A stretch of DNA of 64,000 bases from NCBI GenBank assembly GCA_945787325.1, contig CALZHP010000003.1, positions 6,070 to 70,069 of the forward strand. Reading direction: 5' to 3'. Below the pieces are notes generated by a model, which worked only from the letters and a program-made list of their open reading frames with translations, had not been told where the DNA came from and did not search any database. Shown piece after piece: positions 35,144 through 50,586 of the stretch. The position numbers and the translations under genes are program-made. Position 1 is the first letter of the stretch, and every line of letters starts with the position of its first letter. The stretch comes from an uncultured Desulfobulbaceae bacterium (GTDB lineage Bacteria; Desulfobacterota; Desulfobulbia; Desulfobulbales; BM004).

Positions 35144-37582
35144 TTATGGTACTTTCAGGGCAAGGGTTTCGACGGCCATTTTTTGCCAGAGAGTACTCTT
35201 AGCTTCATCGACAAGGCGTTGTAAAAGTTTAAGACCATCGTTGGATCTGTCAGTTGCAAAATAAATCTGAGCGTTTCGAAAAGTTGCCTGGTCAGAATAG
35301 TCATCCATCTTTTCGAGATGTTCGTAAAGTTTCTGCGCTTTTTTATTGTCTCCTTTACGGAAAAGTGCCTCCGCAAGCAGCATAATGTGTTCAGGTTTTG
35401 CTTCATCGAAACTGTTGCCGACAACTTTACTGAGATGTCTTTCTACTTCATCATACCTGGCAAGATCCCAGAATATTTGGCCGGCTATGAGATCAAGTTC
35501 GGTACTTTCAGGTCTGTCCTTCGAACTGAGAATTTTTGCAGCTTCTTCGAGTTGGCCTGTTTCTATTTTTCCTTTTATAGACAGCGAGAAGAGATCTATA
35601 CTGCTTGGGCCTTCTGGAAATTTGTTGAAATATAGTTCAGTATATTCTTCTACCAGTCTGTGATCACCCTTGGCATAAAGAGCCTCTACTAAAGGTAAAT
35701 ATATTTTTTCTTCATCAGAATTATCTTTGCTTACATCGAGCAGGTAAAGATATACTCTTGCGGCCCGGTTCCATAACCAGAGCCCTGCAAAGGCAAGTCC
35801 AAGGTCTGTGAGAAAGTTGCCGTTTATCCTGCCGCTAAGAAGCAGGTTTCTATTCTGTTCAGCAAGCACCAAGGCATTTATATAATCATTGTTGTCTGTT
35901 AATTTTTTTATGGCAACGGGCAGAATTTCTACTTGCAGTGCCTCTGCTTGGCTATGGAGTGTGCCGTTACTGTAGTCACGCAAGAAATTGTTTAATAGTT
36001 CAACACTTTTGACTTTCTCACCCTGGAGGTGAAGTGCAATTACCTGTTTAAGGGCACCTTCTTCGCGAAGTTCCCTGGAGGGTGCATAGGAAGCTATTTT
36101 CGCATAGTCAATAATGAGTTCAGGAGCATCTTCTCCCAGGAGGATGGCCAGATCACTTAATTTCATTCTGGCGCGATAAGATGCATCTGATTTTGGGAAA
36201 TCAGATATAATATTTTTAAATATATCTATAGCTTGATCTTTTTGCCCCACCTTCAGCCAGTTTACAGCTGCAGCATAAGTTGCAAGGCCTTTTTCGTGCT
36301 GTTTAGAAGCCTGTTTTGCAATTTTTTTATAACGTGTATACGCTTCACCGTACTCTCCCTGCCGGTGGAATAATTCGGCAAGATTGGCAAATGAATATGG
36401 GTGATATTTTAGAACGGTAGAACTTTCGCTTATCTCTTTATAAATTGCCGTAGCATCGTCGAATCTTCCGATGGCAAAACAGGTATCAGCTTGACGCATT
36501 TGTTTTAATATACCGGCCATACCACCGCCGGTGTAAGAATTGCGTGATAATATCTGCTGGGCCTTTTCATACTGGCTGTTTGTCAAAGCTATTTCAGCTT
36601 CTAGAATGTCATAATATGGTGAAAGAGGATCGTTGGTTGTGCTGTCTTGTTTAATCGACAGACGGTATTGAGCGCCATATGAATCACCCGAAGATGCCAG
36701 CGCAATTGATGTAAGATACGTGGCACATCTTCTCACATCCAATACAGGATTGGTCAAGAACAATTCTGTAAATAAAGAAAGCGCTTCACTTAACTCTCCT
36801 TTTCGTATAAGTACTTCTCCGTAGGTAAGCTGAAGATATACTTTTTCAGTGGCAACAGATGAATATTCGACAGCTTTTTGCAGCGTTGAACTGATATTGT
36901 CCCAATTTGTATTATTGGAATATTGACCGACAGATGAAAGGTCATTTTCACCCCAATTTTCAATAATTGTGGCATTGATATCATCCTTTACACTGGGTTT
37001 GAAAAGGGCAATAACAGGAAAAGGTGGAAGTGTATGCTTAAGTGAAACAGGTATGGTAACTGGAGTTTCGTACTTTTCTATAAAAGCTATCCAATTTCCT
37101 GTGTATTCAGAAGTTACAGCTCGCTGAAGAATTGGGGTTCCGGGAATTTTGGAAATACTCCGGGGAAGGTTGTTAGTAATGGCAGGACGCATTTTAGACG
37201 TTTTTTTGTCCCAAAGTATATCCAGAACAAGTTGATCTTCTGATTCATTTAAGGAACTTTCGACCTGCAGCGGTGGTCTGTGAAAGAAAAATGATAGTAC
37301 TGTTTCAGAATCCTTTTCACTCCATTCAGTTTTTATTATAGTACTATCCGATGAAAGGCCCTTAAAAGCATTATCAACAGAACTCATGTGTATAAACAGG
37401 TCTATACGTTGGCCCGATGTTTTTATCTGGTACTTTGGAAGGCCGCTAAACTGAAGAGTTATGCGTGAAGTTTCCTGCCCTTCCTTTTTTTTCACATGCG
37501 TTAACTTGGTTTTTTCCGCAGCAAAGGTGCCCGTTGCGAAAAAAAACGTTATGATAAGAAGACAGAATATTTTTCGAGTCAT
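35144..37582 (-). CDS. Secreted AMIN-like beta-domain plus long TPR-repeat protein, first gene of the flgB operon
   Basis: Signal peptide MTRKIFCLLIITFFFATGTFA|AE. The N-terminal region ...ETSRITLQFSGLPKYQIKTSGQRIDLFIHMSSV... resembles an AMIN domain. After that, about 550 aa carry repeated A/Y/L-patterned TPR-like helices (…GEYGEAYTRYKKIAKQ…, …GDNKKAQKLYEHL…). It is 38 bp from flgB on the same strand. The track ORF extends to 37636. Confidence 0.8.
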   Translation of the reverse strand: MTRKIFCLLIITFFFATGTFAAEKTKLTHVKKKEGQETSRITLQFSGLPKYQIKTSGQRIDLFIHMSSVDNAFKGLSSDSTIIKTEWSEKDSETVLSFFFHRPPLQVESSLNESEDQLVLDILWDKKTSKMRPAITNNLPRSISKIPGTPILQRAVTSEYTGNWIAFIEKYETPVTIPVSLKHTLPPFPVIALFKPSVKDDINATIIENWGENDLSSVGQYSNNTNWDNISSTLQKAVEYSSVATEKVYLQLTYGEVLIRKGELSEALSLFTELFLTNPVLDVRRCATYLTSIALASSGDSYGAQYRLSIKQDSTTNDPLSPYYDILEAEIALTNSQYEKAQQILSRNSYTGGGMAGILKQMRQADTCFAIGRFDDATAIYKEISESSTVLKYHPYSFANLAELFHRQGEYGEAYTRYKKIAKQASKQHEKGLATYAAAVNWLKVGQKDQAIDIFKNIISDFPKSDASYRARMKLSDLAILLGEDAPELIIDYAKIASYAPSRELREEGALKQVIALHLQGEKVKSVELLNNFLRDYSNGTLHSQAEALQVEILPVAIKKLTDNNDYINALVLAEQNRNLLLSGRINGNFLTDLGLAFAGLWLWNRAARVYLYLLDVSKDNSDEEKIYLPLVEALYAKGDHRLVEEYTELYFNKFPEGPSSIDLFSLSIKGKIETGQLEEAAKILSSKDRPESTELDLIAGQIFWDLARYDEVERHLSKVVGNSFDEAKPEHIMLLAEALFRKGDNKKAQKLYEHLEKMDDYSDQATFRNAQIYFATDRSNDGLKLLQRLVDEAKSTLWQKMAVETLALKVP

Positions 37583-38084
37583 AGAATTTCCCTTCAAAAA
37601 TTTGTTTCGACTGGAAAACAGCAAAATGTGTTCCATTCTGACCTGCTATTTTCTTTATTCTAATGATTACAGATATATAGGTTTTTTGCAGATTGAATCT
37701 GTGTATGGATTTGCTCGTTAGGTTATTAAAGGAGCTATGAAGGGTCATTTTTTTGACAATTAATTCGATGAACTTGAAACATTCACTTGGGCCAGGGAAA
37801 AGAGACAGAACGAGATTCCAGAAATACACAAAGCAGATTAATGAGTTGATTACTTCTCAATGGTCATATTTTATAAATGTTACTTTAATAATATCGGGGA
37901 GATATGTTCACGAATGTCGACTGAGTGATTGTTGCCTTGATGTCATAAATACGAAGCCGAAACTATTAATGTAATGTAATGAAATGAACTTAATGAAGAT
38001 GTTACTCATTAACGGCATAAAAATTGTATAAGTGCTCTTGTGGTGTAACAATTAGAATGTATAGTGTTGAGTGGATTTTTTCTG

Positions 38085-38150: not shown

Positions 38151-40721
38151 ATGAGCAAAGATATTTCTTCAGAAGACATTGAAATAATTCAAGACTTTAT
38201 CCAAGAAAGTCATGACATGCTTGATCAATTGGAACCAACGATTATTGAACTTGGTGAGAGTTGTCAAAGTGTGAACTGCTGGGAAATCCTTAAGTGTGAA
38301 AGTGATGACTGCCACCGACAAGGAAAAGAAATAGATATTCCCTGCTGGCTGCACACCGGTTATGTGGGAAACGGTCTTGGTATATGTACCCACGGCAGTT
38401 CTGAGGCCGAATGTCTGTCTTGCCAGGTCTTTGTAATGACAAACGGAGATACTGAAACAATGAACGCCATATTCCGTTTGTTTCATTCAATGAAAGGGAG
38501 TGCCGGGTTCCTTGAGTTCGACAATATTTCTCGCAGCGCGCATGCGGCTGAAAACCTGCTGGATTTGATCCGTTCCGGCAACATTCAAATGGTGCCAGAA
38601 CATGTTGATCTTCTCTGCAAAGCATGTGACTTTGCCAATGAAGCTCTCGACTACGTAGAGGAACATTTTAACGACGAAGGTATGGCTGAAAAAGCAGAAG
38701 AAATTACTTCCCTTCTTAGAGATGCTATTGAAGATGCTCAAAACAGGGCAAAATTTATTCAGGAAGATACTGTTCAACAAGGCAAGAAAAACGATACCCA
38801 TAGCTCTGATGAAAAAGCATCTGCTTCTGAAGAGTCTGAGCCAGATCAGCAGGATCTGATTGGTCCGGAAATGATAGAGACATTCGTGCTTGATGCTGAA
38901 GATTTACTCAGAAGGGTAGAGCTGAATCTTTTAAAATTAATTGAACAGCCGAGCGATGAGATCATTTTAGCAGATCTTTTCAGAGAGATGCACACTTTTA
39001 AAGGGAATTGCGGATTCCTAAACCTTGGAGACTTTGAGAGATTAAGCCACAAGGTAGAAAGTGTACTTGGGGAATATAAGGAAGGAGATGTCCTAACAGA
39101 TAGTGATTCCACTCAACTTCTCATCAATATTGTAGATACAATGCAATCTGGTGTTGCCGATTTTTCTTCTGATGGCGATGGTACAATAGATCAGTTGGAA
39201 ATGCATCTCAAGTCGTTGGACGACCTTCTTCAAAAAATAAGCAATGCCCCCCCTCCAATACCAGATGATGCACCACGCCTGGGTGAATTGCTCGTAGAAA
39301 AAGGAATTATTAATTTTGAAGATATCGAAGAGGCACTGGAAGAACAGCAGAAACCTCTTGGAGATATCTTGATTGATATGGGGAAGGTTACTCCCGAGCT
39401 GATAACAACTACTCTAAAAGAACAACATAAAATTATTTCGCAGGATGCAGATAAAAAAGGGAAACCGAAGCCAAGATCTTTACCTGTAAAACGCCAAGAC
39501 ATAAGAGTTGATCTTGAAAAGCTCGACAACCTAATAAATCTTATCGGCGAGATGGTTATCGCCGAAAACATGTTAGTTCACAACCCCGATCTGGAAGGAA
39601 TGGAGTTGGAGAACTTCAATAAGGCCGCCCAACAGATGGGTAAGCTTGTCCGTGAGCTGCAGGAGATGGCCATGATAATCAGGATGATTCCTGTGTCGGG
39701 TCTATTCAGGCGAATGATTCGTCTGGTTCACGATCTGTCTACAAAGTCTGGGAAAAAGGTAGATCTGCAGCTTGCAGGTGAAGAAACAGAGATAGATAAA
39801 ACTGTCATAGAAACAATCACGGATCCCCTTGTCCATTTGTTGCGTAATTCTTTGGACCACGGTCTAGAACCTCCGGAAGAAAGAAACAAGGCGGGAAAAC
39901 CTGAAATAGGTGTACTTATCTTGTCGGCAAGACATGAAGAAGGCGAGGTCTGGATTACCCTGGAAGATGACGGCAGGGGACTTAACCGTGAAAAGATTAT
40001 CGCAAAAGCAATAAAGAACGGATTATTAGAAGAAGAATCTCCAGATTTGAGCGACAAGGAGGTTTATAATCTTATTTTTCAGCCGGGATTTTCAACTGCT
40101 GAAGTGATAACAAATGTATCTGGCCGTGGTGTGGGGATGGATGTTGTAAAGCAGAATCTTAACAAAATAAGAGGTAAGGTTGAGGTTCAGAGTAAACCCG
40201 GACGCGGCACTAAAATAACCCTTCGTATTCCCCTTACCCTGGCTATTATCGACGGAATGCTCGTTCGCGTAGGGTTATCTAAGTGTATTCTTCCCATCCT
40301 GAATATCCGGGAGGCTTTTTGTCCAAAAAGCAGTTCGATAACAATTACCCCAGATGGTGAAGAGATTGTTCGTGTCCGGGAAAACTTTTTTCCTGTCATA
40401 AGACTTCATGAAATTCTAGGTAAAGAACCGGACTGTATGGAGCTTGAGAAAGGAATTCTGATTGTTCTTGAGTATCAGGACAATAGCGCCTGCCTGTTCG
40501 TGGATGAAATAATGGGGCAGCAGCAGACGGTTATTAAGGGGTTGTCAGATTATATTGGCAGCATTCCAGTTATTTCAGGTTGTACTATCCTCGGCAACGG
40601 GCAAGTCTGTCTCATTCTTGACACTGGTAACCTGGTTGAACTGAAAGAAGGAAGTGAGCATGCCGCTGCACTGCAGGAACTGGCCCAACAACAAAGTGCG
40701 GCCGAACAGGCTGCTAATTAA
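38151..40721 (+). CDS. cheA: Chemotaxis histidine kinase CheA, non-canonical: Hpt(with Cys-rich insert)-Hpt-MshEN-like-P3-P4-P5
   Basis: It carries two Hpt phospho-His boxes, FRLFHSMKGSAGF (H112) and FREMHTFKGNCGF (H281). The dimerisation segment is DIRVDLEKLDNLINLIGEMVI. The HATPase region has the N box HLLRNSLDHG, G1 DDGRG and G2 GRGVGMD. The C-terminus is CheW-like. Confidence 0.93.
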   Translation: MSKDISSEDIEIIQDFIQESHDMLDQLEPTIIELGESCQSVNCWEILKCESDDCHRQGKEIDIPCWLHTGYVGNGLGICTHGSSEAECLSCQVFVMTNGDTETMNAIFRLFHSMKGSAGFLEFDNISRSAHAAENLLDLIRSGNIQMVPEHVDLLCKACDFANEALDYVEEHFNDEGMAEKAEEITSLLRDAIEDAQNRAKFIQEDTVQQGKKNDTHSSDEKASASEESEPDQQDLIGPEMIETFVLDAEDLLRRVELNLLKLIEQPSDEIILADLFREMHTFKGNCGFLNLGDFERLSHKVESVLGEYKEGDVLTDSDSTQLLINIVDTMQSGVADFSSDGDGTIDQLEMHLKSLDDLLQKISNAPPPIPDDAPRLGELLVEKGIINFEDIEEALEEQQKPLGDILIDMGKVTPELITTTLKEQHKIISQDADKKGKPKPRSLPVKRQDIRVDLEKLDNLINLIGEMVIAENMLVHNPDLEGMELENFNKAAQQMGKLVRELQEMAMIIRMIPVSGLFRRMIRLVHDLSTKSGKKVDLQLAGEETEIDKTVIETITDPLVHLLRNSLDHGLEPPEERNKAGKPEIGVLILSARHEEGEVWITLEDDGRGLNREKIIAKAIKNGLLEEESPDLSDKEVYNLIFQPGFSTAEVITNVSGRGVGMDVVKQNLNKIRGKVEVQSKPGRGTKITLRIPLTLAIIDGMLVRVGLSKCILPILNIREAFCPKSSSITITPDGEEIVRVRENFFPVIRLHEILGKEPDCMELEKGILIVLEYQDNSACLFVDEIMGQQQTVIKGLSDYIGSIPVISGCTILGNGQVCLILDTGNLVELKEGSEHAAALQELAQQQSAAEQAAN

Positions 40722-40915
40722 CGGGAAATGACCAATTAGAAATCAATTGAAGCAGGCTTAAGTCAATCAGTTTGGGGAAGTACTTAATTTAAAATCAATG
40801 GAATAACTGATAGACAGCTGTAGCCGAGAATTCAGGGGGGGAGGACCCCCAAATGCATTATTGTGGTCGTTCAGAAAAACTGCAATAAATGCGTAAAATT
40901 CAAGGGAGGATTTCG

Positions 40916-41710
40916 ATGAGTAAAAGAGTTATGAAATTGTTTTTTGTTACTATGAGTTTGGTCCTGTTTTTTTCCTATTCCGCAAATGCTGCAGAGGTCC
41001 TGTTGTGGGGGTCAACTACCTGTCAGAAGCGTTTTCTGGAGCCTGGCAAGGAAGCGCTCAATAATGCTACAGGAGTTAACATCAAGGTTTTTGGGGTTGG
41101 TACAGGTAAGGGAATGCTTGCCCTTTTTGAAGGAAAGACCAATGTGGCAATTTCTTCGAATACCTTGGATGAGAGTGTTAAATCCGCCCAGAAGGTTCGA
41201 AAAAAAACAGGCAAGGAGCCTGTGGAAGTGCCAGAAGGACTTCAGTATCATGAGATAACCAAAGACGTCATTGTCCCTATAGTACACAAAGAAAACACTG
41301 TCAATAAACTGAGCTGGGAACAGCTGGCAGATCTGAACACCGGTAAAATCACCAACTGGAAAGATGTCGGTGGCCCAGATATGTCTGTTCAGGTTGTAAC
41401 AAGCCATGCCGGCAGTTCAACAAAAGCAGTATTCCGGAAGATGGTCATGAAGAAGGCAGAGTATGATGCCGGTGCAATCGAGGTAAAAAGCACCAGGTTG
41501 GAGATAAACAAAGTATCCAAAAATAAAGGTGGTGTAGGTGCTGTCAGTAGCGGTTTTCATACGCTGAATCCCGGCAAAACAAAAGTAGTTGAAACAAACA
41601 CGATTCAGAGACCTCTCGGTCTTGTAACAATTGGTGATCCGGCTCCTGATGTACAGAAAATAATTGATTTTTTTCGTTCAGCAGAAGGCAAGAAACATAT
41701 ACTAGATTAA
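40916..41710 (+). CDS. Periplasmic substrate-binding protein, PstS/PBP-like-2 family
   Basis: Signal peptide ...LVLFFSYSANA|AE, then ...LLWGSTTCQKRFLEPGKEAL...IKVFGVGTGKGMLALFEGKTNVAISSNTL..., the pattern of phosphate-type type-2 binding proteins. There is a strong SD (GGGAGGA) before the ATG at 40916. Confidence 0.8.
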   Translation: MSKRVMKLFFVTMSLVLFFSYSANAAEVLLWGSTTCQKRFLEPGKEALNNATGVNIKVFGVGTGKGMLALFEGKTNVAISSNTLDESVKSAQKVRKKTGKEPVEVPEGLQYHEITKDVIVPIVHKENTVNKLSWEQLADLNTGKITNWKDVGGPDMSVQVVTSHAGSSTKAVFRKMVMKKAEYDAGAIEVKSTRLEINKVSKNKGGVGAVSSGFHTLNPGKTKVVETNTIQRPLGLVTIGDPAPDVQKIIDFFRSAEGKKHILD

Positions 41711-41911: not shown

Positions 41912-44356
41912 ATGAAGAATAGTTGGAAGCTAAACATTCAGGAGAAATTGATCGGTGGTTTCGGCATTGTTGCGTTTGTATGCGCTACTGTGGGCTATGT
42001 CGGGTGGTATGGGGCTTCTAAATTAGAAGAAAATATCGTTGTAACCGGTGAAGTCAGTGTACCTTCTTTGCAGGCAGTAATGAACCTTAAAGAAGCGCAG
42101 CTTTCTATTAAGGCATCTGGGCGAACTCTTCTTAACCCATCTCTTTCAGTTGAAAATAAGGCTAAAGAATACGCGGATATTGATGCCGCTTTCTCAAGGG
42201 CAAACAGCGCGCTTGAAATGTACGAAGCCCTTGACATCGATGGTAGTGAGAAAGCTTTGTGGCAAAATTTTCTGGCCAGCTGGAGTGAATGGAAAATGAG
42301 TATTGAAAATTTTATTACTCTCAGCAAGAAGAATGATGCATTAAATATCCACAACCCCCAAAAACTGATCAGCGATATAGAGAGAAATTTTGGTGAATAC
42401 AGAACCTGGGCCGCTGAAAGTGTAAAAGCTGTCCTCGAAAACAGTGAATTCTCAGGTAACCTGGACCCGGATAAATCACCCTTCGGGATATGGTTGTCAT
42501 CACTACAGGTCGATAACCAGGTTGTTCAGGAAGCTGTCATCAAACTAAAAAATCAGTTGATCAGTGTATATTCTTCGGTTGGTTCAATTGCAGATTTTTT
42601 ATCAATTGAAGAATATGAACTGGCCAAGGAAGTATATGTTTCAGAGGTGCTGCCAAGTATAGAAAGTATTCAGATCTATGTAGATAACCTCATGGCACCT
42701 ATTGAAGAATCCCTGGATCTATATGAGGAGATGGCTGTTTATGAGCGTGAAACCTTCTCAATATCACTGGCAAAAACAGAAAAACTCTTGAATCAGGTTG
42801 TGATGAAGACCAACGCAAAAGTCGCGGAAGATGTGAATGAAGGCCGTGCATTTGCTGGTAATATTACAATGGCTCAAATTGTTGTGGCAATGCTTGGTGC
42901 AATAGCAGCTTTTGTGTTTGGTTTTTTTCTTGCCCGCCATATAATTATTCCCATTAAAAAGGCTATTGGTGTTATAAGCAAGCTTTCACAGGGTAATACA
43001 GATGTGACTATGCCGGTTGGCAAATTTTTTAATTGTTCTGAAGAGAAAAAATGCGGTCATGAGGATTGTCCAAGTTATGGCAAAGTTGACCCCTGCTGGG
43101 TAACAAGTGGTTCTTTTGCGGCAATAAAACATTGTCCTCGAGCGAAAAGCGGTGAAGATTGCCGCTCATGTAATTTGTATGGCAAGCGCACTGAACTTGA
43201 AGAGCTGGGTTCAATTATCATGGCATTATCAAATATTATAAAAGAACGGGAAAATCTGGCGCTTGCAATTGCCGAGGGTGATCTGAATAAAGAAGTGGAA
43301 GTTGCATCTGACAATGATACACTCGGCAAAGCTCTCAAATTGATGCAGGATAGTCTCAGCGATATTATCGGCAAGGTCCAAATGGCGGGAGAGCAAATAG
43401 CTAACGGTTCTACTCAGATTTCCGGTTCCAGCCAGTCTCTTTCTGAAGGAGCGACCAAGTCTGCTGCGTCGCTTGAAGAGATGACCACGTCCATGTCGCA
43501 AATGGGCACGCAAACCAAGCGAACCGCCAAGCACGCAATTGAGGCTAATGATCTTTCCGAACAATCCAAAAATGCTGCCGAGGATGGTAATCAGCGAATG
43601 GCCGACATGGTTGAAGCCATGAAACAGATAAGTGCATCCAGCCAGAGTATCTCAAAGATAATAAAAGTGATTGATGAGATCGCTTTTCAGACAAATCTAC
43701 TTGCTTTGAACGCGGCTGTGGAAGCTGCGCGAGCAGGGCGGCATGGCAAAGGTTTTGCAGTAGTGGCTGAAGAGGTAAGGAACCTTGCTGCGCGAAGTGC
43801 CAAAGCTGCGCGGGAAACAGCTGACTTAATAGAGGGGTCAGTAAAAAGAACTGATAATGGTGCTGAAATAGCAGGTAAAACTGAGGATGCCCTGTTGGAT
43901 ATAGTGGGCAAAACCTCAAAGGTGTCTGACATTGTTGCAGAAATAGCGTCATTGTCTAACCAGCAGGCCCAGGGGATAGATCAGGTAAATTTGGGTTTGG
44001 AGCAGGTGGATAAAGTTACCCATGAAAATACAACCACTGCTGAAGAAGGAGCAGCCGCCGCTGAAGAGTTGTCCTCCCAGGCAAATCACCTGTATAATAT
44101 GTTACGGCATTTCAAACTTAAGGAAAATTATCGGAATAAAATCAGGACTGAACAGCCACAGCAATTAGAACCTTTAGAGGAGGTTCGGAATAATGACCAT
44201 AATGAACAGCCGCAGCTGATTGAACCTGTAAAGAAGGCGGTTGAAACATGGGGTGTGAATAGCGAGGAACCTGAAGAAAGTAATGAGTTTAAAGATGAAC
44301 CCCGTTTTCAGGATGATTTTATAGCGTTGGATGATAACGAATTTGGTAAGTACTAA
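41912..44356 (+). CDS. Methyl-accepting chemotaxis protein with a Cys-rich module inserted in its HAMP domain
   Basis: It has TM1, a periplasmic region of about 290 aa, and TM2 ([24 protein letters not shown]). The split HAMP is followed by a signalling domain, ...[44 protein letters not shown]... The C-terminus is a long acidic tail. Confidence 0.93.
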
Positions 44357-44485
44357 TTATATAGCGGAAGTGAACAACATAATTTAATAATAATGCTACA
44401 TAAGTCAAAGGATCGTAAACCATGAATATAAAGTGATTGTAGACTTAATATTCGATTATGCAGGACATGTTTGAGAGGAGTAAAT

Positions 44486-45010
44486 ATGGTGCAATATACC
44501 AGGGACGAAATGTTGGATGATGATTTTTACGGTGAAGATGAAGATACCCAGAAGGGAAAATTTTTAACATTTCACATGGCGAATGAGGATTATGGAATAG
44601 AGATCAAACATGTTACTGAAATAATTGGAATTCAAAATGTTACGGAAGTGCCGGATATGCCGGACTATGTCCGTGGTGTTATCAATCTGCGCGGCAAAGT
44701 AATACCCATAATGGATGTGCGTACCAGGTTCAAACTTCCCCCCCGGGAATACGACGAGCGCACCTGCATCATTGTTGTCAACATTGATGATAAGTCAGTG
44801 GGACTTGTAGTAGACAAGGTGAATGAGGTCGCGGATATTCCCGATGACCAGATAGAACCGCCTCCCAGGACAAAAAGAGAGGGAGGAGGGTATATCCAGG
44901 GTATGGGTAAGATTGACGAGGAAGTCAAGATACTGCTGGACGTCACTAAGCTACTTTATGAGGATGAACTTGAAGAGCTTGATGCCGTGTCCCAGAATTC
45001 CTCTGAGTAG
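44486..45010 (+). CDS. cheW: Coupling protein CheW
   Basis: ...FLTFHMANEDYGIEIKHVTEIIGIQNVTEVPDMPDYVRGVINLRGKVIPIMDVR... Start at MVQYT, with SD GAGGAG. Confidence 0.9.
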   Translation: MVQYTRDEMLDDDFYGEDEDTQKGKFLTFHMANEDYGIEIKHVTEIIGIQNVTEVPDMPDYVRGVINLRGKVIPIMDVRTRFKLPPREYDERTCIIVVNIDDKSVGLVVDKVNEVADIPDDQIEPPPRTKREGGGYIQGMGKIDEEVKILLDVTKLLYEDELEELDAVSQNSSE

Positions 45011-45149
45011 TAAAAGCAGTAATATATGTTCGTAAAATTGATTATGACAACTTTATAGGTTTGTCATTTATTTCAACTCATATCAATGTTAGAATGTCAC
45101 TATTATTCACAAAGATTGCGGACACTTGTTGTCTGAAAAGCTGAACGGT

Positions 45150-45992
45150 ATGAATGGATATCTGCTTAGCATTTCAGACGAAGAATTCCAATTAATGCGC
45201 TCTTTGATCTATGAGCGTTTCGGTATCAATCTCACCGAACAAAAACGTTCGCTGTTGATCGGGCGTCTCCAGAAGATAATCAAAACATCTGGATTTCATT
45301 CTTTTCAACAGTATTACGAACACATAATTAATTCCCAGAACGAACAGGCCCTCAGTAATCTGATTGACCGTGTTTCAACCAATCATACTTATTTCTACAG
45401 AGAGAAAGACCATTTTGATTACTTTCTTCAAACCGCATTGCCTAATGTCGTATCAAGACTAGAAGCAAAAGGTTCCCGAGAATTGCGAGTGTGGTGCGCC
45501 GGATGCTCGTCAGGTGAAGAACCTTATATGATTCTCATGCTGATGCAGAAATACTTTGGTATGGATTATTTGAAATGGGATGCAGGAGTTTTAGCCACTG
45601 ATATCTCTTTGAGAGCACTGAATACTGCTAAGGCAGGGATTTATAATCAGGAAAAAATCGATATGATTCCTGAGGAGCTCGTAAGTAAACATTTTTATAA
45701 GAGTGGCAAAAGTGAGTGGGTCGTAAAAGATTCATTAAAGAAAGAGGCTACCTTCCGCCGATTTAATTTAATGAATAGTCATTTTCCTTTTAAGAAGCCA
45801 TTTCAAATAATTTTCTGCAGGAATGTGATGATTTATTTTGATCAGCCGACCCGGGACAATCTTGTGAAAAAATTTTATCAATTCACGGATCCGGGTGGAT
45901 ATTTTTTTATCGGCCACTCAGAATCTCTAGGCCGTAGCCATGATCACTACCAATATGTAAAACCGGCCGTTTATCAGAAGAGGTATAAGTAG
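45150..45992 (+). CDS. cheR: Chemoreceptor methyltransferase CheR
   Basis: ...FQLMRSLIYERFGINL... and the SAM-binding VWCAGCSSGEEPY ...IFCRNVMIYFD. The start is uncertain (ATG at 45150 or TTG at 45126). Confidence 0.9.
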   Translation: MNGYLLSISDEEFQLMRSLIYERFGINLTEQKRSLLIGRLQKIIKTSGFHSFQQYYEHIINSQNEQALSNLIDRVSTNHTYFYREKDHFDYFLQTALPNVVSRLEAKGSRELRVWCAGCSSGEEPYMILMLMQKYFGMDYLKWDAGVLATDISLRALNTAKAGIYNQEKIDMIPEELVSKHFYKSGKSEWVVKDSLKKEATFRRFNLMNSHFPFKKPFQIIFCRNVMIYFDQPTRDNLVKKFYQFTDPGGYFFIGHSESLGRSHDHYQYVKPAVYQKRYK

Positions 45993-47054
45993 ATGCTTAA
46001 AAAAATACGTGTTCTTGTTGTTGATGATTCTTTGCTTGTCAGGCAAGTACTTACCAAGGGACTTTCCGCTGATCCAGCTATAGAAGTTGTTGGAGCTGCT
46101 GAAGATCCATATGTTGCCAGGGATAAGATTGTGGAGCTGAAGCCCGATGTCCTGACCCTGGATGTGGAGATGCCCCGCATGAACGGTGTTGATTTCCTTC
46201 GCCGACTAATGGCCCAGCGGCCCATGCCGGTTGTTATGGTAAGTTCTCTTACACAGAAAGGACAAAAAGTTACACTTGATGCTCTGGAGGCGGGTGCAGT
46301 GGATTTCGTTTCCAAACCATCTGTATCCGGTATCAGTGGACTAAGTGGGATGCTGACAGAGTTGCGGGTTAAGGTAAAAACAGCAGTTACGGCAAATCTT
46401 CTTCAGCTCAAAGAGAAAAAAGAACGGGCTCCTCAAGAATCGGTTTCTAAGGACAATGTTAGAGCACTTGCAGAGCTGGCTGGAAAAGTAGTTGCGATAG
46501 GAGCATCGACCGGTGGAACTGAAGCTTTAAATACAATTTTATCGCAGTTTCCGGCAACTATGCCGGGTGTTGTTGTTGTTCAGCATATGCCACCAGGATT
46601 CACCAAGATGTTTGCAGAAAACTTGAATAATGCCTGTGCTATGAAAGTGAAGGAAGCGGAAACAGGTGACAGAATAATGTCTGGACGTATCCTCGTTGCA
46701 CCGGGAGGTGTGCAGACTAAGGTAGTAGAAAAAGGGGGTGTCCTGCAGGTCTCTTGCGGTTCTTCGGAAAAGGTAAGCGGTCATTGCCCTTCTGTAGATG
46801 TAATGATGCAATCAGTAGCAGAAAGCGTTGGGGCAGATGCTGTTGGAGTCATGCTGACTGGAATGGGTAATGATGGTACCAAAGGAATGCTTGCCATGAA
46901 AAATGCCGGAGCTAAAAATATGGCTCAGGATGAAGCATCTTCAGTTGTTTTCGGTATGCCTAAACAGGCTTATGAGGCTGGAGGTGCAAAAGCACTTGTC
47001 CCCCTTAATAGGATATCGGCTAAAATTATCAGTTTTCTCCTGGAGAAACGTTAG
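45993..47054 (+). CDS. cheB: Chemoreceptor methylesterase/response regulator CheB
   Basis: REC domain (VLVVDDS..., DVLTLDVEMPRMNG) plus an esterase domain (IGASTGG..., ...HMPPGFT..., ...GMGNDG). Confidence 0.94.
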   Translation: MLKKIRVLVVDDSLLVRQVLTKGLSADPAIEVVGAAEDPYVARDKIVELKPDVLTLDVEMPRMNGVDFLRRLMAQRPMPVVMVSSLTQKGQKVTLDALEAGAVDFVSKPSVSGISGLSGMLTELRVKVKTAVTANLLQLKEKKERAPQESVSKDNVRALAELAGKVVAIGASTGGTEALNTILSQFPATMPGVVVVQHMPPGFTKMFAENLNNACAMKVKEAETGDRIMSGRILVAPGGVQTKVVEKGGVLQVSCGSSEKVSGHCPSVDVMMQSVAESVGADAVGVMLTGMGNDGTKGMLAMKNAGAKNMAQDEASSVVFGMPKQAYEAGGAKALVPLNRISAKIISFLLEKR

Positions 47055-47539
47055 TGAGCGGAACCTTTCTAGGAATCGGCGATTATGCCGTCTCAAATGA
47101 GGCAGACTCCGTGTTGAAAACGTACCTTGGTTCTTGTGTTGCGGTTATCCTGCTTGATCCTATAACACGAACCGTTGGTATGGTGCACATAGCTCTGCCG
47201 GATTCAAGTCTAGATCCATCTAAGAAGGAATTATTACCTGGGTATTTTGCAGACTCAGGTATTGCTGTTCTTTTCAACAAGATGAAAGAGTACGGCTTCA
47301 GTGAAAAAAGCCATAAACTTATTGTAAAACTGGTGGGAGGGGCATCGGTAATGTCTCAATGTGATGTTTTTAACATTGGATTAAGAAATGTTGAGGCTGC
47401 AAAAAGTATACTGAAATCCATGGGTTTACATATATCATCAGAAGATGTTGGAGAGAAATACAGCAGATCTGTTGCCATTGAGGTGGATACAGGAAAGGTA
47501 ACTGTAAGCAGCCCAGGTCGCGGCCAGTGGGATATATGA
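47054..47539 (+). CDS. cheD: Chemoreceptor glutamine deamidase CheD
   Basis: ...LKTYLGSCVAVILLDP...GMVHIALP... with catalytic Cys/His contexts. It overlaps the cheB stop. Confidence 0.88.
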   Translation: MSGTFLGIGDYAVSNEADSVLKTYLGSCVAVILLDPITRTVGMVHIALPDSSLDPSKKELLPGYFADSGIAVLFNKMKEYGFSEKSHKLIVKLVGGASVMSQCDVFNIGLRNVEAAKSILKSMGLHISSEDVGEKYSRSVAIEVDTGKVTVSSPGRGQWDI

Positions 47540-47549
47540 GGTAGAAAGT

Positions 47550-48416
47550 ATGAACAAGAAACTTGTTAATAAAGAAATCATGATTGCTATCAAAAGCGCA
47601 CCGCTTCTTTCTCCAAGCGTTTATGATATTATAAGAAAAATAGCAGAACCTGACCACAGCCTGGCTGATGTGGTCAAGATTGTGAAGCATGATTCCGCAC
47701 TTACAGCAAGATTATTGAGGGTAGTTAACTCAGCGGCTTTTGCGACGTTAGATCCGGTTAATTCTGTTGACCGGGCTATATCATTACTTGGAGAACGTAT
47801 GGTTGTCGGTTTGGCTATATCAGAAAGTACAGGTAATTTATTCCATAAACCTCTAGAGGGCTACGATGGCAAAAAAGGTGACCTTTGGAGTCATGATCTT
47901 ATTGTTGCTTATGCAACAAGAAAAATAGCGGGACTAGCTAAGATTAATATCGATCCCGAACTGGCATTTACCGGTGGGTTATTACATGATATCGGCAAGG
48001 CGATTATTTCCGATTTTCTAAAAGGAACTGCGGAGGAGTTACTGCAGAGTATTGATAAAGGTCATGTCGATGATTATGCCTCGGCCGAAAAAAATTTCCT
48101 GGGAGTCAACCACCAGGCGGTGGGTTACGAACTTGCCATGAACTGGAATTTACCTGAATCAATCCAACAGATGATCCTCCATCACCACAGCCCTGCCGAA
48201 TCGGATGATGAGTTCAAACCTTATGTTTATGCAGTTCATTTAGGAGATATTATATCAATGATGTCCGGATTTGGTACCGGCACAGATATTATGCAATATA
48301 ACCTGGACCAGGGATATGAAGAGTATTTTAATCTTAAATTTGAATCGATAGCATCTGTAATGCTGGAAATTAAGGATAAATGTAAAAGAGTAATTGGGGT
48401 GGAGGACTGCATGTAG
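47550..48416 (+). CDS. HDOD domain protein
   Basis: ...ADVVKIVKHDSALTARLLRVVNSAAF... and ...GGLLHDIGKAIIS... are HDOD hallmarks. Confidence 0.8.
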   Translation: MNKKLVNKEIMIAIKSAPLLSPSVYDIIRKIAEPDHSLADVVKIVKHDSALTARLLRVVNSAAFATLDPVNSVDRAISLLGERMVVGLAISESTGNLFHKPLEGYDGKKGDLWSHDLIVAYATRKIAGLAKINIDPELAFTGGLLHDIGKAIISDFLKGTAEELLQSIDKGHVDDYASAEKNFLGVNHQAVGYELAMNWNLPESIQQMILHHHSPAESDDEFKPYVYAVHLGDIISMMSGFGTGTDIMQYNLDQGYEEYFNLKFESIASVMLEIKDKCKRVIGVEDCM

Positions 48417-48496
48417 ATCCATTTAACGTTCTTAATATGATCGGTATCTGCATTTATTTAGCTGTAATTATACGTCAACCATAGGCGGAGGTAAGC

Positions 48497-48868
48497 ATGG
48501 GTAAGAAGGTATTAATTGTTGATGATTCAAGCACTATGCGTAAGATCGTAACCAGGTGCCTGAGACAGGCGGGTCTGGAGTTCGAAGAGGTACTGGAAGC
48601 AGGAGACGGCCAGGAAGCCCTCCAGGTTCTTCAGGGTGCAAAAGTGGATCTTATTTTAAGCGACATAAATATGCCCAATATGGATGGTTTGGCATTCCTC
48701 AAGGAAAAAGCAGGTAATGATGCAATCAAAGACATTCCTGTGGTTATGATATCAACTGAAAGTGGGGACGATATTGTAACTGAAGCCAAAAAATTGGGTG
48801 CTGCAGGCAGTATAAAGAAACCATTTACGCCAGATCAGGTCAACGAGACAATAATGCCGTTAATATAG
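48497..48868 (+). CDS. cheY: Response regulator CheY
   Basis: KVLIVDDSSTMRKI..., DLILSDINMPNMDG, ...VVMISTE..., ...IKKPF. All canonical receiver residues are present. Confidence 0.93.
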   Translation: MGKKVLIVDDSSTMRKIVTRCLRQAGLEFEEVLEAGDGQEALQVLQGAKVDLILSDINMPNMDGLAFLKEKAGNDAIKDIPVVMISTESGDDIVTEAKKLGAAGSIKKPFTPDQVNETIMPLI

Positions 48869-48887
48869 ACTTGATAAGGTAGTATAC

Positions 48888-49346
48888 ATGGTTGAACCAC
48901 AAGAGTTGATTAGCTTCACCCAAGAAATATTCTCTACGATGATCATGATGGATGTAAGGCCGGGTGAACCTATTACAGGAAAATATGAGTTTTTTCAATC
49001 TTCCATTACCGGTATGGTTGGTCTGGCAGGGAAATATAAAGGAATGATCGCTATTCATGTTCCCGACAATGTAGCAAAAACGATAACAGGAAACTTTCTT
49101 GGCTGTGGTGTTGAAGAGATTAATGAAGATGTCCATGATGCAATTGGAGAGCTAGCGAATATGTTAGGAGGTAGCATAAAAGCCTGCTTAGCTGAATCCA
49201 GTAAAGATATCGAGCTTTCATTGCCTACTACTGTTTTAGGGATGCAATATTCCCTGCAGAGTCAGGATGATGTTAAGGTTATGACAATTCCTTTCAGCGT
49301 TGAAGGTGGTGAGTTTCTGGTTGAAATACAGTTGCAAGAAAAATAA
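48888..49346 (+). CDS. cheX: CheX-type CheY-P phosphatase (CheC/CheX/FliY family)
   Basis: A single active-site motif, D-x3-E-x2-N (DAIGELANMLGG), followed by a Pro about 22 residues later. CheX-like size (152 aa). Confidence 0.8.
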   Translation: MVEPQELISFTQEIFSTMIMMDVRPGEPITGKYEFFQSSITGMVGLAGKYKGMIAIHVPDNVAKTITGNFLGCGVEEINEDVHDAIGELANMLGGSIKACLAESSKDIELSLPTTVLGMQYSLQSQDDVKVMTIPFSVEGGEFLVEIQLQEK

Positions 49347-49446
49347 TTACTGATTGATATGATGTTTAATAATGTCAAATATACAAATCGAGTTCAATAA
49401 CTTTATAAGTAGCGACATTATAATCATGGCTTCATAATAGGAGACA

Positions 49447-50586
49447 ATGAAAGCAAGGGAGACAATTGATAACACACTGGATGCGGCGAAATTGCATCTA
49501 CAGAAAGAAGTTGGTGATCTTCTTGGACACAAAGTCAGTCTATCAGATCCCAGGGGCCGCTTCATTTCCAAGGTGAACTTTTTTTCAAGATTCGAAAGTA
49601 AAAACGTTCTTGTCAAATTTGAGGTAAGTGGTGAACTGGAAGGGATTATATATCTTAATTTTTCTATGAAAGATGCTATTACACTTGGCGGTACGCTCAT
49701 AATGCTTCCCGATGCTGAACTGGAGGCACACATCTCTAAAGGTGAATTTGGTGAGGATGAAGCAGATGCATTTGGTGAAATAACAAATATCATTTGCGGT
49801 CTCTACACGAAAAGTTTTACTGAGCAATTTCCCCAAAAAATCCATTTTAAAAAAACGGACCTTGTAGTTTTCCAACCATCTGAAATAGATATTGATTCTC
49901 CCGACCCTATTCCGGACGTAGGTTACTATTTGGTATCTTTTCCAATGGTTCTCGGGGAAAAACAACTTGGTGAATTTGATACCCTATTTCCTGCAGAATT
50001 GTTCGGAATGGAGTTTGTTGAAGAACAAGGCGTCGCAGAGAAAGTTCAGGGTGAAGAGGGTGAAAAGCAGGCGGAACCAGCGGCTTCAGATGATGGGATA
50101 ACAGAGTCCCCGCCGACTGATGTTGGAGCATCAGAAACTGAACTGGGGGCTCCTGCAGCCCAGGAAGATGCAGCAGTGACTCCTGCTCAAGACGTAAGCG
50201 CTTCTGCTGCAATAAATCAGGAAAGCACCCGAGTGATCATACTTGCAGATGAAGTCCAGGACGCTCAACCCTTTATGAGTACACTTCAGGAATGCGGGTT
50301 CGAGCCGAATATTATGAATTTTAATGATAATATAAAGGATGTTGTCGCCCAGGGAGTACGCGGAATTTTTATTATCTTGAACGAAGTGAACGAGCAGGGT
50401 ATGGCGGCTCTAATAAAAATAAGCTCAGCCTGTAGTGGTGGTTATCCACTTGTAATAGCAGGGCCGGAATGGACGCGAAAAACTGTTATGCAGGCTGTTA
50501 AATATGGTGCCTGTGACATAGTTATGACCCCGGCGTCACCTGATGAAATAAAAGGAAAAATTTGCCAGCACTTCGGAAGCGTCTAA
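49447..50586 (+). CDS. CheC-like domain - acidic linker - degenerate receiver (pseudo-REC) fusion protein
   Basis: A D-x3-E-x2-N motif is present (DAFGEITNIICG, codons 107-114). A Glu/Ala/Pro-rich linker of about 70 aa follows. The C-terminal 120 aa have a REC fold pattern (VIILADE..., GIFIILNEVN, PLVIAGP, DIVMTP), but Asn, Ala/Gly and Thr replace the phospho-Asp, Thr/Ser and Lys. Confidence 0.65.
   Translation: MKARETIDNTLDAAKLHLQKEVGDLLGHKVSLSDPRGRFISKVNFFSRFESKNVLVKFEVSGELEGIIYLNFSMKDAITLGGTLIMLPDAELEAHISKGEFGEDEADAFGEITNIICGLYTKSFTEQFPQKIHFKKTDLVVFQPSEIDIDSPDPIPDVGYYLVSFPMVLGEKQLGEFDTLFPAELFGMEFVEEQGVAEKVQGEEGEKQAEPAASDDGITESPPTDVGASETELGAPAAQEDAAVTPAQDVSASAAINQESTRVIILADEVQDAQPFMSTLQECGFEPNIMNFNDNIKDVVAQGVRGIFIILNEVNEQGMAALIKISSACSGGYPLVIAGPEWTRKTVMQAVKYGACDIVMTPASPDEIKGKICQHFGSV

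Follow-up and report, generated by a model that had tools for sequence, protein, structure and literature searches.

A divergent two-CW cysteine module nested in the HAMP domain of a Desulfobulbaceae chemoreceptor, with a related insert in the neighbouring CheA kinase

A 64,000-nucleotide stretch of DNA from an uncultured Desulfobulbaceae bacterium (assembly GCA_945787325.1, contig CALZHP010000003.1, positions 6,070 to 70,069; hereafter the window) encodes a methyl-accepting chemotaxis protein (MCP) of 814 amino acids (41912..44356, + strand) whose first HAMP domain is split by a cysteine-rich module. No signal converter is commoner in bacterial receptors than HAMP, which as a rule is compact, with about 50 residues. 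Sequence comparisons assign the MCP segment to the two-CW domain (NCBIfam NF045718), itself about 50 residues long, as a divergent subfamily specific to MCPs, and place a similar insert in the CheA kinase encoded two genes upstream on a separate two-CW branch. The module is thus an unannotated new variant of a domain that is catalogued but uncharacterised, and we put the probability that its identity and architecture are as described here at roughly 0.9.

A cysteine module interrupts the first HAMP domain of the receptor

The open reading frame of the receptor encodes, in order, a first transmembrane segment (TM1), a periplasmic 4HB sensor, a second transmembrane segment (TM2), the split HAMP unit (HAMP1), a second HAMP-like unit (HAMP2) and an MCP signalling domain. 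Hydrophobic segments at residues 12-32 and 313-349 correspond to TM1 and TM2, and the sensor and signalling domains are matched by Pfam 4HB_MCP_1 (residues 6-143, 55 bits) and MCPsignal (PF00015, residues 546-703, 182.3 bits). Seven of the eight cysteines of the protein are confined to the 46 residues from C375 to C420, and the eighth, C24, lies in TM1. The seven form the pattern C-x5-C-x4-C-x8-CW-x11-C-x8-C-x2-C, encoded at 43034-43171 (+) exactly as reported in a preliminary description of this DNA. The complete module (residues 371-425, 43022..43186, +), which we describe as a 'one-CW' variant of the two-CW domain, is placed in the cytoplasm just below the membrane by its position after TM2. 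An antisense reading frame of 99 amino acids (43075-43374, - strand) overlaps the module region and is presumed to be spurious.

The two halves of HAMP1 flank the module. The segment containing its first helix (AS1) and the start of the connector (residues 346-370, 42947..43021, +) aligns with module-less homologues that carry a Pfam HAMP domain, and the segment containing the second helix (AS2; residues 426-447, 43187..43252, +) aligns with the DEIGxLxxxF motif of AS2 in the same proteins. The order AS1, connector, AS2 directly after TM2 can therefore be aligned to contiguous HAMP domains. HAMP2 follows without interruption (residues 448-500, 43253..43411, +) and gives a weak Pfam HAMP match at residues 450-480 (E = 1.4e-3).

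The closest homologues by sensor domain that lack the module (P0012-P0019) have 0-2 cysteines and an ordinary contiguous Pfam HAMP, and their alignment with the window protein continues from one side of the module to the other across a clean gap of about 57 columns. At the junction a module-less homologue reads ...G-HIETRLNM joined directly to QRSDEIGQMAGAM..., and the window protein reads ...GNTDVTMPV[GKFFNC...NLYG]. By this alignment about 55 amino acids have been inserted cleanly at the C-terminal end of the HAMP1 connector, directly before the 'DExG' start of AS2. The preliminary description had likewise claimed that the module divides the first HAMP between AS1 with its connector and AS2, and this division holds.

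We also removed the module in silico, joined its flanks and rescored the product against Pfam HAMP (PF00672, gathering cutoff 25 bits). The intact window protein has no PF00672 match for the unit after TM2. Once spliced, the homologous receptor P0037 scored 38.5 bits (profile positions 4-53) and P0020 scored 21.8 bits, and all five of the classical two-CW proteins that were spliced, mutually unrelated sensor proteins including histidine kinases and an HD-domain protein, scored 36-48 bits (profile positions 2-53), a complete HAMP above the cutoff. Classical two-CW proteins have TM2 and a HAMP AS1 ahead of the domain, and by inspection 12 of 16 have an AS2 signature ('GDEIxxLxxxFNxM' or 'xIGExFNNMM') behind it. 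HAMP nesting is therefore the usual architecture of the two-CW family, in histidine kinases, an HD-domain protein and a GGDEF protein, and is not peculiar to the window receptor. A search of the accessible literature found no description of a two-CW domain nested in HAMP, and the architecture appears not to have been described previously.

An AlphaFold2 monomer model of residues 330-485, built on 45 aligned homologues, is confident overall (predicted local distance difference test score, pLDDT, 91; predicted template modelling score 0.81), with pLDDT 84-92 over the module. In it a long helix of TM2 and AS1 (model residues 2-30) leads into the compact, mostly non-helical module; a second long helix (99-125) then begins with AS2 and continues into the AS1 of HAMP2, and a final helix follows (141-155). 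HAMP2 is represented by helix 99-125 and the final one. Within the module three short helices each start at or beside a cysteine. A Foldseek search with the whole model returned only Af1503-type HAMP structures (probability 0.97) at a non-significant E of about 2; the aligned part is not reported, so the match cannot be assigned to HAMP1.

The receptor and kinase modules are divergent branches of the two-CW superfamily

The CheA insert has the pattern C43-x5-C49-x4-C54-x10-C65-W-x12-C79-x8-C88-x2-C91. Aligned with the MCP module, all seven cysteines and the central CW coincide and the spacing is changed only by +2 and +1, in keeping with the near-identical spacers of the preliminary description. 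That description had further proposed that the two segments are the same kind of module, and alignment bears this out: they are homologous and do not belong to unrelated families. BLASTP aligns them at 35% identity over 54 amino acids (E = 6e-8), and hhalign relates a profile of the MCP type (65 modules) to one of the CheA type (5 modules) with 96.5% probability (E = 9e-10). A six-frame pattern scan found these two copies and no others in the window.

Both types are also related to classical two-CW domains. The MCP type aligns with the classical set at 98.4% (E = 7e-15) and the CheA type at 99.45% (E = 5e-22), the latter value being inflated since the classical set was picked with the CheA profile. 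Each of the two window modules is closer to the NCBIfam two-CW domain than to the other. They share with NF045718 the same core of six cysteines plus CW and the same overall length, and they align column for column with the core C-x5-C-x4-C...CW...C-x2-C; classical two-CW domains, like the MCP module, sit between AS1 and AS2 of a HAMP. In a combined alignment of the three types (n = 62 sequences) the six cysteines corresponding to C375, C381, C386, C395, C417 and C420 and the tryptophan W396 are invariant. The fifth cysteine, C408, is not invariant across this alignment; a seventh cysteine, beyond these six, is fixed in the MCP and CheA types.

The fifth cysteine follows the CW at a distance of 12-13 residues in the MCP and CheA types, whereas in classical two-CW domains it follows at about 7 residues or is absent. 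The first tryptophan of the two-CW domain is lost in the MCP type, in which 'CS...CW' (C375-S and C395-W) replaces 'CW...CW'; the CheA insert retains both CW dipeptides (C43-W and C65-W), and the first tryptophan is also missing in 2 of 16 classical members, which read CRE.

The NCBIfam model, which has a curated cutoff of 35 bits, matches all five CheA-type inserts weakly (best E = 2e-5) and 24 of the 65 MCP-type modules very weakly (best E = 0.0026). Pfam holds no model for either module. An exhaustive search of 1.84 billion representative sequences with a profile of the five CheA inserts returned 24 proteins at E <= 1e-3. Flanks of the CheA Hpt kind (LGQ...NG...NAIFR) surround the module in the top five, and P0103 is one further, more divergent protein with such flanks. 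Most of the remaining matches are classical two-CW domains, six of ten scanned modules reaching the NCBIfam cutoff (36-52 bits). Among ten hosts that were scanned with Pfam are histidine kinases and, in addition, a GGDEF protein, an HD-domain protein and a PAS protein.

Two copies of the domain occur in some two-CW proteins (P0104, P0106, P0110, P0111 and P0117), and P0104 has another AS2-like motif ahead of the copy that was scored. In P0102 (782 amino acids, 29 cysteines) 14 short stretches match the CheA-module profile (E = 1e-12); it looks like a repetitive protein containing cysteine and tryptophan rather than a two-CW domain. A search of the accessible literature found no paper on the bacterial two-CW domain. 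The 'CW domain' of the literature is the eukaryotic zf-CW histone reader, which is unrelated.

These profile comparisons place both window modules within the two-CW superfamily, as divergent branches that score under the annotation threshold and of which neither is derived from the other. The sharing of a module between receptor and kinase that was noted earlier thus stands as homology, but the two are not a private pair, each being an independent branch of NF045718.

The module is the best-conserved segment of the transducer region

A search with residues 1-480 of the receptor yielded 78 proteins, 65 of which bear the module. Across these 65 homologues all seven cysteines, the tryptophan and the dipeptides PS and GS are invariant, with a mean column identity of 78%, and the flanks are constant ('...GDTSxxLPMG' before and 'TExEELGSI...' after). 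Compared segment by segment, mean column identity is 0.76 for the module against 0.52 for AS1, 0.66 for AS2 and 0.65 for HAMP2, so that the module is the best-conserved segment of the MCP transducer region. The nearest relatives of the window receptor, at about 59-68% identity, come from Desulfobulbaceae metagenome-assembled genomes (MAGs). When one genome per species was scanned, 35 loci came to light, almost all of them in MAGs of Desulfobulbales and Desulfuromonadales with a few in other bins.

The N-terminal regions of module-bearing receptors vary (4HB, TarH or dCache), as does the presence of a C-terminal CZB domain. About a dozen, of roughly 470 amino acids, have no periplasmic domain, their transmembrane segments being at most 10 residues apart. 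Such sensor-less receptors (among them P0036, P0041, P0047, P0052, P0056, P0058, P0065, P0067 and P0070) form a class of about 470-540 amino acids in which a transmembrane hairpin with a loop of 1-10 residues leads directly into the HAMP-nested module, and the module is the only candidate input in them. Several module-bearing receptors end in a CZB domain (PF13682; P0020-P0025, P0027, P0028 and P0064) and so contain two different cysteine or metal modules each.

The CheA insert lies in a phosphotransfer domain and was acquired independently

The CheA gene (38151..40721, +; 856 amino acids) was assigned from Pfam and NCBIfam matches. Its product contains an Hpt domain with the two-CW insert (Hpt1), a second Hpt domain (Hpt2), an MshEN-like cyclic di-GMP (c-di-GMP) motif, and dimerisation, ATPase (HATPase_c) and CheW-like domains, with the Hpt, dimerisation, HATPase_c and CheW-like domains in the order expected of CheA; it scores 459 bits against NF007835, under the equivalog cutoff of 793. 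The insert (residues 37-97, 38259..38441, +; cysteine core C43-C91 at 38277-38423, +) occupies the loop between helices A and B of Hpt1, between helix A and the helix that bears the phospho-acceptor His112 (codon at 38484-38486, +), and lies 21 residues ahead of that histidine. An additional cysteine, C38, is not conserved among orthologues and is lacking in P0079.

Among N-terminal CheA orthologues the insert is present in P0079-P0083, P0085 and P0099-P0101 and absent from P0084 and P0086-P0097. The insert-less orthologues join cleanly at the insert site, where IIELGQ is followed directly by NSDSETMNAIFRLFHSMKG. When the insert was removed in silico the Pfam Hpt match of the window protein grew from profile positions 22-78 to 1-78. 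The two Hpt domains of this CheA (residues 1-330, 38151-39140) carry His112 and His281, and the insert is confined to the first. The MshEN-like motif (residues 376-425, 39276-39425; NF053729, 54.7 bits, cutoff 38) lies between Hpt2 and the dimerisation domain and suggests that c-di-GMP is an input to this kinase.

Between the CheA and MCP genes, directly upstream of the latter, lies a gene for a periplasmic binding protein (PBP_like_2, PF12849, 87 bits; 40889..41710, +). The rest of the che operon, assigned with Pfam, follows at 44471..49346 (+) and encodes CheW, CheR, CheB, CheD, an HDOD protein, CheY and CheX. Three loci (L036-L038) are syntenic with the window through flagellar genes, a TPR protein, CheA, CheR, CheB, CheD, HDOD, CheY and CheX; in them the CheA insert is present and the block of binding protein, MCP and CheW is absent. 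Cluster members of this type of CheA are named from Desulfuromonadales MAGs. The comparison suggests that the block was inserted as a receptor cassette and that the 4HB sensor may receive a ligand by way of the binding protein. A Desulfobulbales MAG (L005) has both inserts, like the window, and four loci with the same order of CheA and then MCP (L025, L026, L027 and L030) combine an insert-less CheA with a module-bearing MCP. On the evidence of this gene content the two inserts were acquired independently.

The HDOD-domain protein is encoded between CheD and CheY (47550-48416), and 48888-50586 holds CheX followed by a 379-residue protein whose N-terminal half is weakly CheX-like. Gene orientation switches at about 36000-38000, from the minus strand upstream of 37.6 kb to the plus-strand che operon, and GC and AT skew change sign at the switch. 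Judged by synteny with L036, the minus-strand genes upstream probably encode flagellar proteins (FlgB/C, FliE-I) and lie behind the gene of a large TPR protein (35144-37636). The window was also scanned for Rfam families and tRNAs, without a match.

A possible metal or redox input to HAMP

The module is a cytoplasmic cysteine-rich domain under strong purifying selection, placed in series at the junction of HAMP connector and AS2 and, in CheA, in the Hpt A-B loop. Our tentative proposal for its function, to which we give slightly less than an even chance, is that of a metal-thiolate cytoplasmic input acting on HAMP packing. Its cysteines would bind metal, as an iron-sulphur cluster or as zinc, and a change of redox or metal state would alter the fold or rigidity of the module. 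Spliced in series between connector and AS2, the module would then alter the packing of AS1 and AS2 in the four-helix HAMP bundle and bias kinase control. Such an input would be added to that of the periplasmic 4HB domain, for which the adjacent binding protein may be a partner. The CheA insert, a module of the same kind, would control the use of the first of the two Hpt domains.

A number of results weigh against the identification or against this mechanism. On the side of identity and architecture, neither window module reaches the NCBIfam cutoff, the MCP module giving no match at E <= 10 and the CheA insert 19.3-20.2 bits, and the spliced window receptor scores 16.2 bits against PF00672 (profile positions 1-40), under the gathering cutoff. 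When the module was modelled alone, one of five AlphaFold2 models was confident (88 versus 54-66). On the side of the cofactor, Foldseek found no analogue of the module in the PDB, a PDB sequence profile search gave nothing significant for it, and neither search yielded a sequence or fold relative with a known cofactor. The sole pointer to a metalloprotein was the γ subunit of 4-hydroxyphenylacetate decarboxylase (HPAD γ; PDB 2Y8N_B), a HiPIP-like small subunit of a glycyl-radical enzyme that binds two [4Fe-4S] clusters (PMC13450708) and resembles the module at the level of motifs (W-x4-C-G-x3-C-P-S-Y and C-x-x-T-x-G...C-P-x8-C-x2-C-x2-F/Y). The likeness is statistically unsupported (hmmsearch E = 2.5, hhalign 4%, no Foldseek match), and we rejected it as a relative. 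The neighbourhoods of three sensor-less module receptors contained no consistent redox partner and no partner genes in common; a thioredoxin gene lies near one and a DsbD_2 protein gene near another. A purely structural zinc module would, finally, explain the conservation equally well.

The last point is the core of the best-surviving alternative, which we consider unlikely though by no means negligible: the cysteines may bind zinc to fold a small knob with no signal of its own, which would stiffen or extend the HAMP connector or offer a docking surface in the receptor array. Small cysteine-rich domains with little secondary structure, as in the AlphaFold2 models, are typical of structural zinc sites, and this alternative also draws on the lack of a redox partner in the examined neighbourhoods and of any likeness to known Fe-S proteins that survives testing. 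Against it, the domain is found almost only in signalling proteins, at junctions that transmit the signal: at the HAMP connector, in the Hpt A-B loop or N-terminal to PAS; the dozen or so module receptors without a periplasmic domain would be left with no evident input; and module-less homologues with ordinary HAMP domains work without such a brace. Because of the sensor-less receptors and the near-exclusive occurrence in signalling proteins, we favour an input role for the module over a purely structural one.

It is improbable that the two modules bind each other and so tether CheA Hpt1 to the receptor HAMP as a pathway-specific coupling. Such homotypic docking would suit their presence in adjacent genes of one operon in the window and in L005, but four operons pair a module receptor with an insert-less CheA and three others have the CheA insert and no adjacent MCP. 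An obligate pair of MCP and CheA modules is rejected, since syntenic operons hold either insert alone. The numbers are also uneven, with 65 MCP-type homologues against a CheA type that accounts for about five, those ranking highest, of the 24 significant matches among 1.84e9 representatives, and the classical two-CW domains of unrelated kinases resemble each module more closely than its supposed partner does.

Two copies about 4.7 kb apart with an identical cysteine pattern might suggest a recent duplication, a gene conversion between the two genes or a cysteine-rich stretch that arose by chance. This reading is refuted by the BLASTP, hhalign and DNA comparisons: protein identity is only 35%, the DNA of the copies gives no significant blastn match and is 49% identical over 50 aligned codons, the codons of the 19 identical residues agree at the third base in only 7 cases, conserved orthologues of either type exist separately across Desulfobulbales and Desulfuromonadales, and profile E-values of 1e-9 to 1e-22 exclude chance. 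The preliminary description had drawn the same conclusion, that the DNA of the two copies is dissimilar and that their sharing is ancient and selected, and the dissimilar DNA, the profile homology and the module identity of 0.76 agree with it.

If the module is an input, a broader reading can be sketched, which we regard as speculative and on balance doubtful. The two-CW domain would be a dedicated HAMP-embedded redox or metal input, probably with an Fe-S cofactor, and thereby a hitherto unrecognised means of passing cytoplasmic state straight to HAMP in receptors, kinases and c-di-GMP enzymes of anaerobic Desulfobacterota, and in the window both the receptor HAMP and the kinase Hpt1 would be wired to it, giving a two-tier, ligand-independent control resembling energy taxis. 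The idea of energy taxis through redox or metal state, raised in the preliminary description, is a plausible hypothesis, to which the dozen or so sensor-less module receptors lend indirect support.

Significance and comparison with known systems

Current annotation misses the module: the proteins are labelled as ordinary MCPs or CheA, and a HAMP that is split scores under the Pfam threshold. The present assignments give an orphan NCBIfam family a defined structural context, and the module is a natural experiment on how the geometry of the connector and AS2 controls output. Sensor-less receptors with this module only, together with a CheA that has it beside the phospho-histidine, are candidates amenable to study for energy or redox taxis in sediment bacteria that cycle sulphur and metals. 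A complete cofactor-type domain spliced into a HAMP connector would let signals enter by a new route.

Receptors of the Aer type, which mediate energy taxis through a cytoplasmic PAS domain with FAD placed lateral to HAMP, feed a cytoplasmic and potentially redox-responsive input directly into HAMP and not by way of the periplasm and membrane, as the module may do, a likeness that we infer to be one of function. The window receptor has no PAS or FAD domain, and whereas the Aer input packs against HAMP in trans, the module is built into the HAMP connector in series.

The CZB domain (PF13682) is likewise a cysteine-containing, metal-binding cytoplasmic domain of chemoreceptors and stands at the C-terminus of several module-bearing homologues (among them P0020-P0025 and P0064). 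It is an unrelated helical-bundle domain, with no PF13682 match in the window receptor, and the co-occurrence of both in one protein suggests that CZB and the module are not redundant.

The nearest report in the literature to the nesting described here concerns AskA-like poly-HAMP arrays, in which a β-hairpin insertion at the C-terminal end of the connector of one HAMP is tolerated and conserved (PMC13446029). The site is the same end of the connector; the AskA-like insertion is a β-hairpin only, whereas that in the window receptor is a complete cysteine-rich domain of 55 residues.

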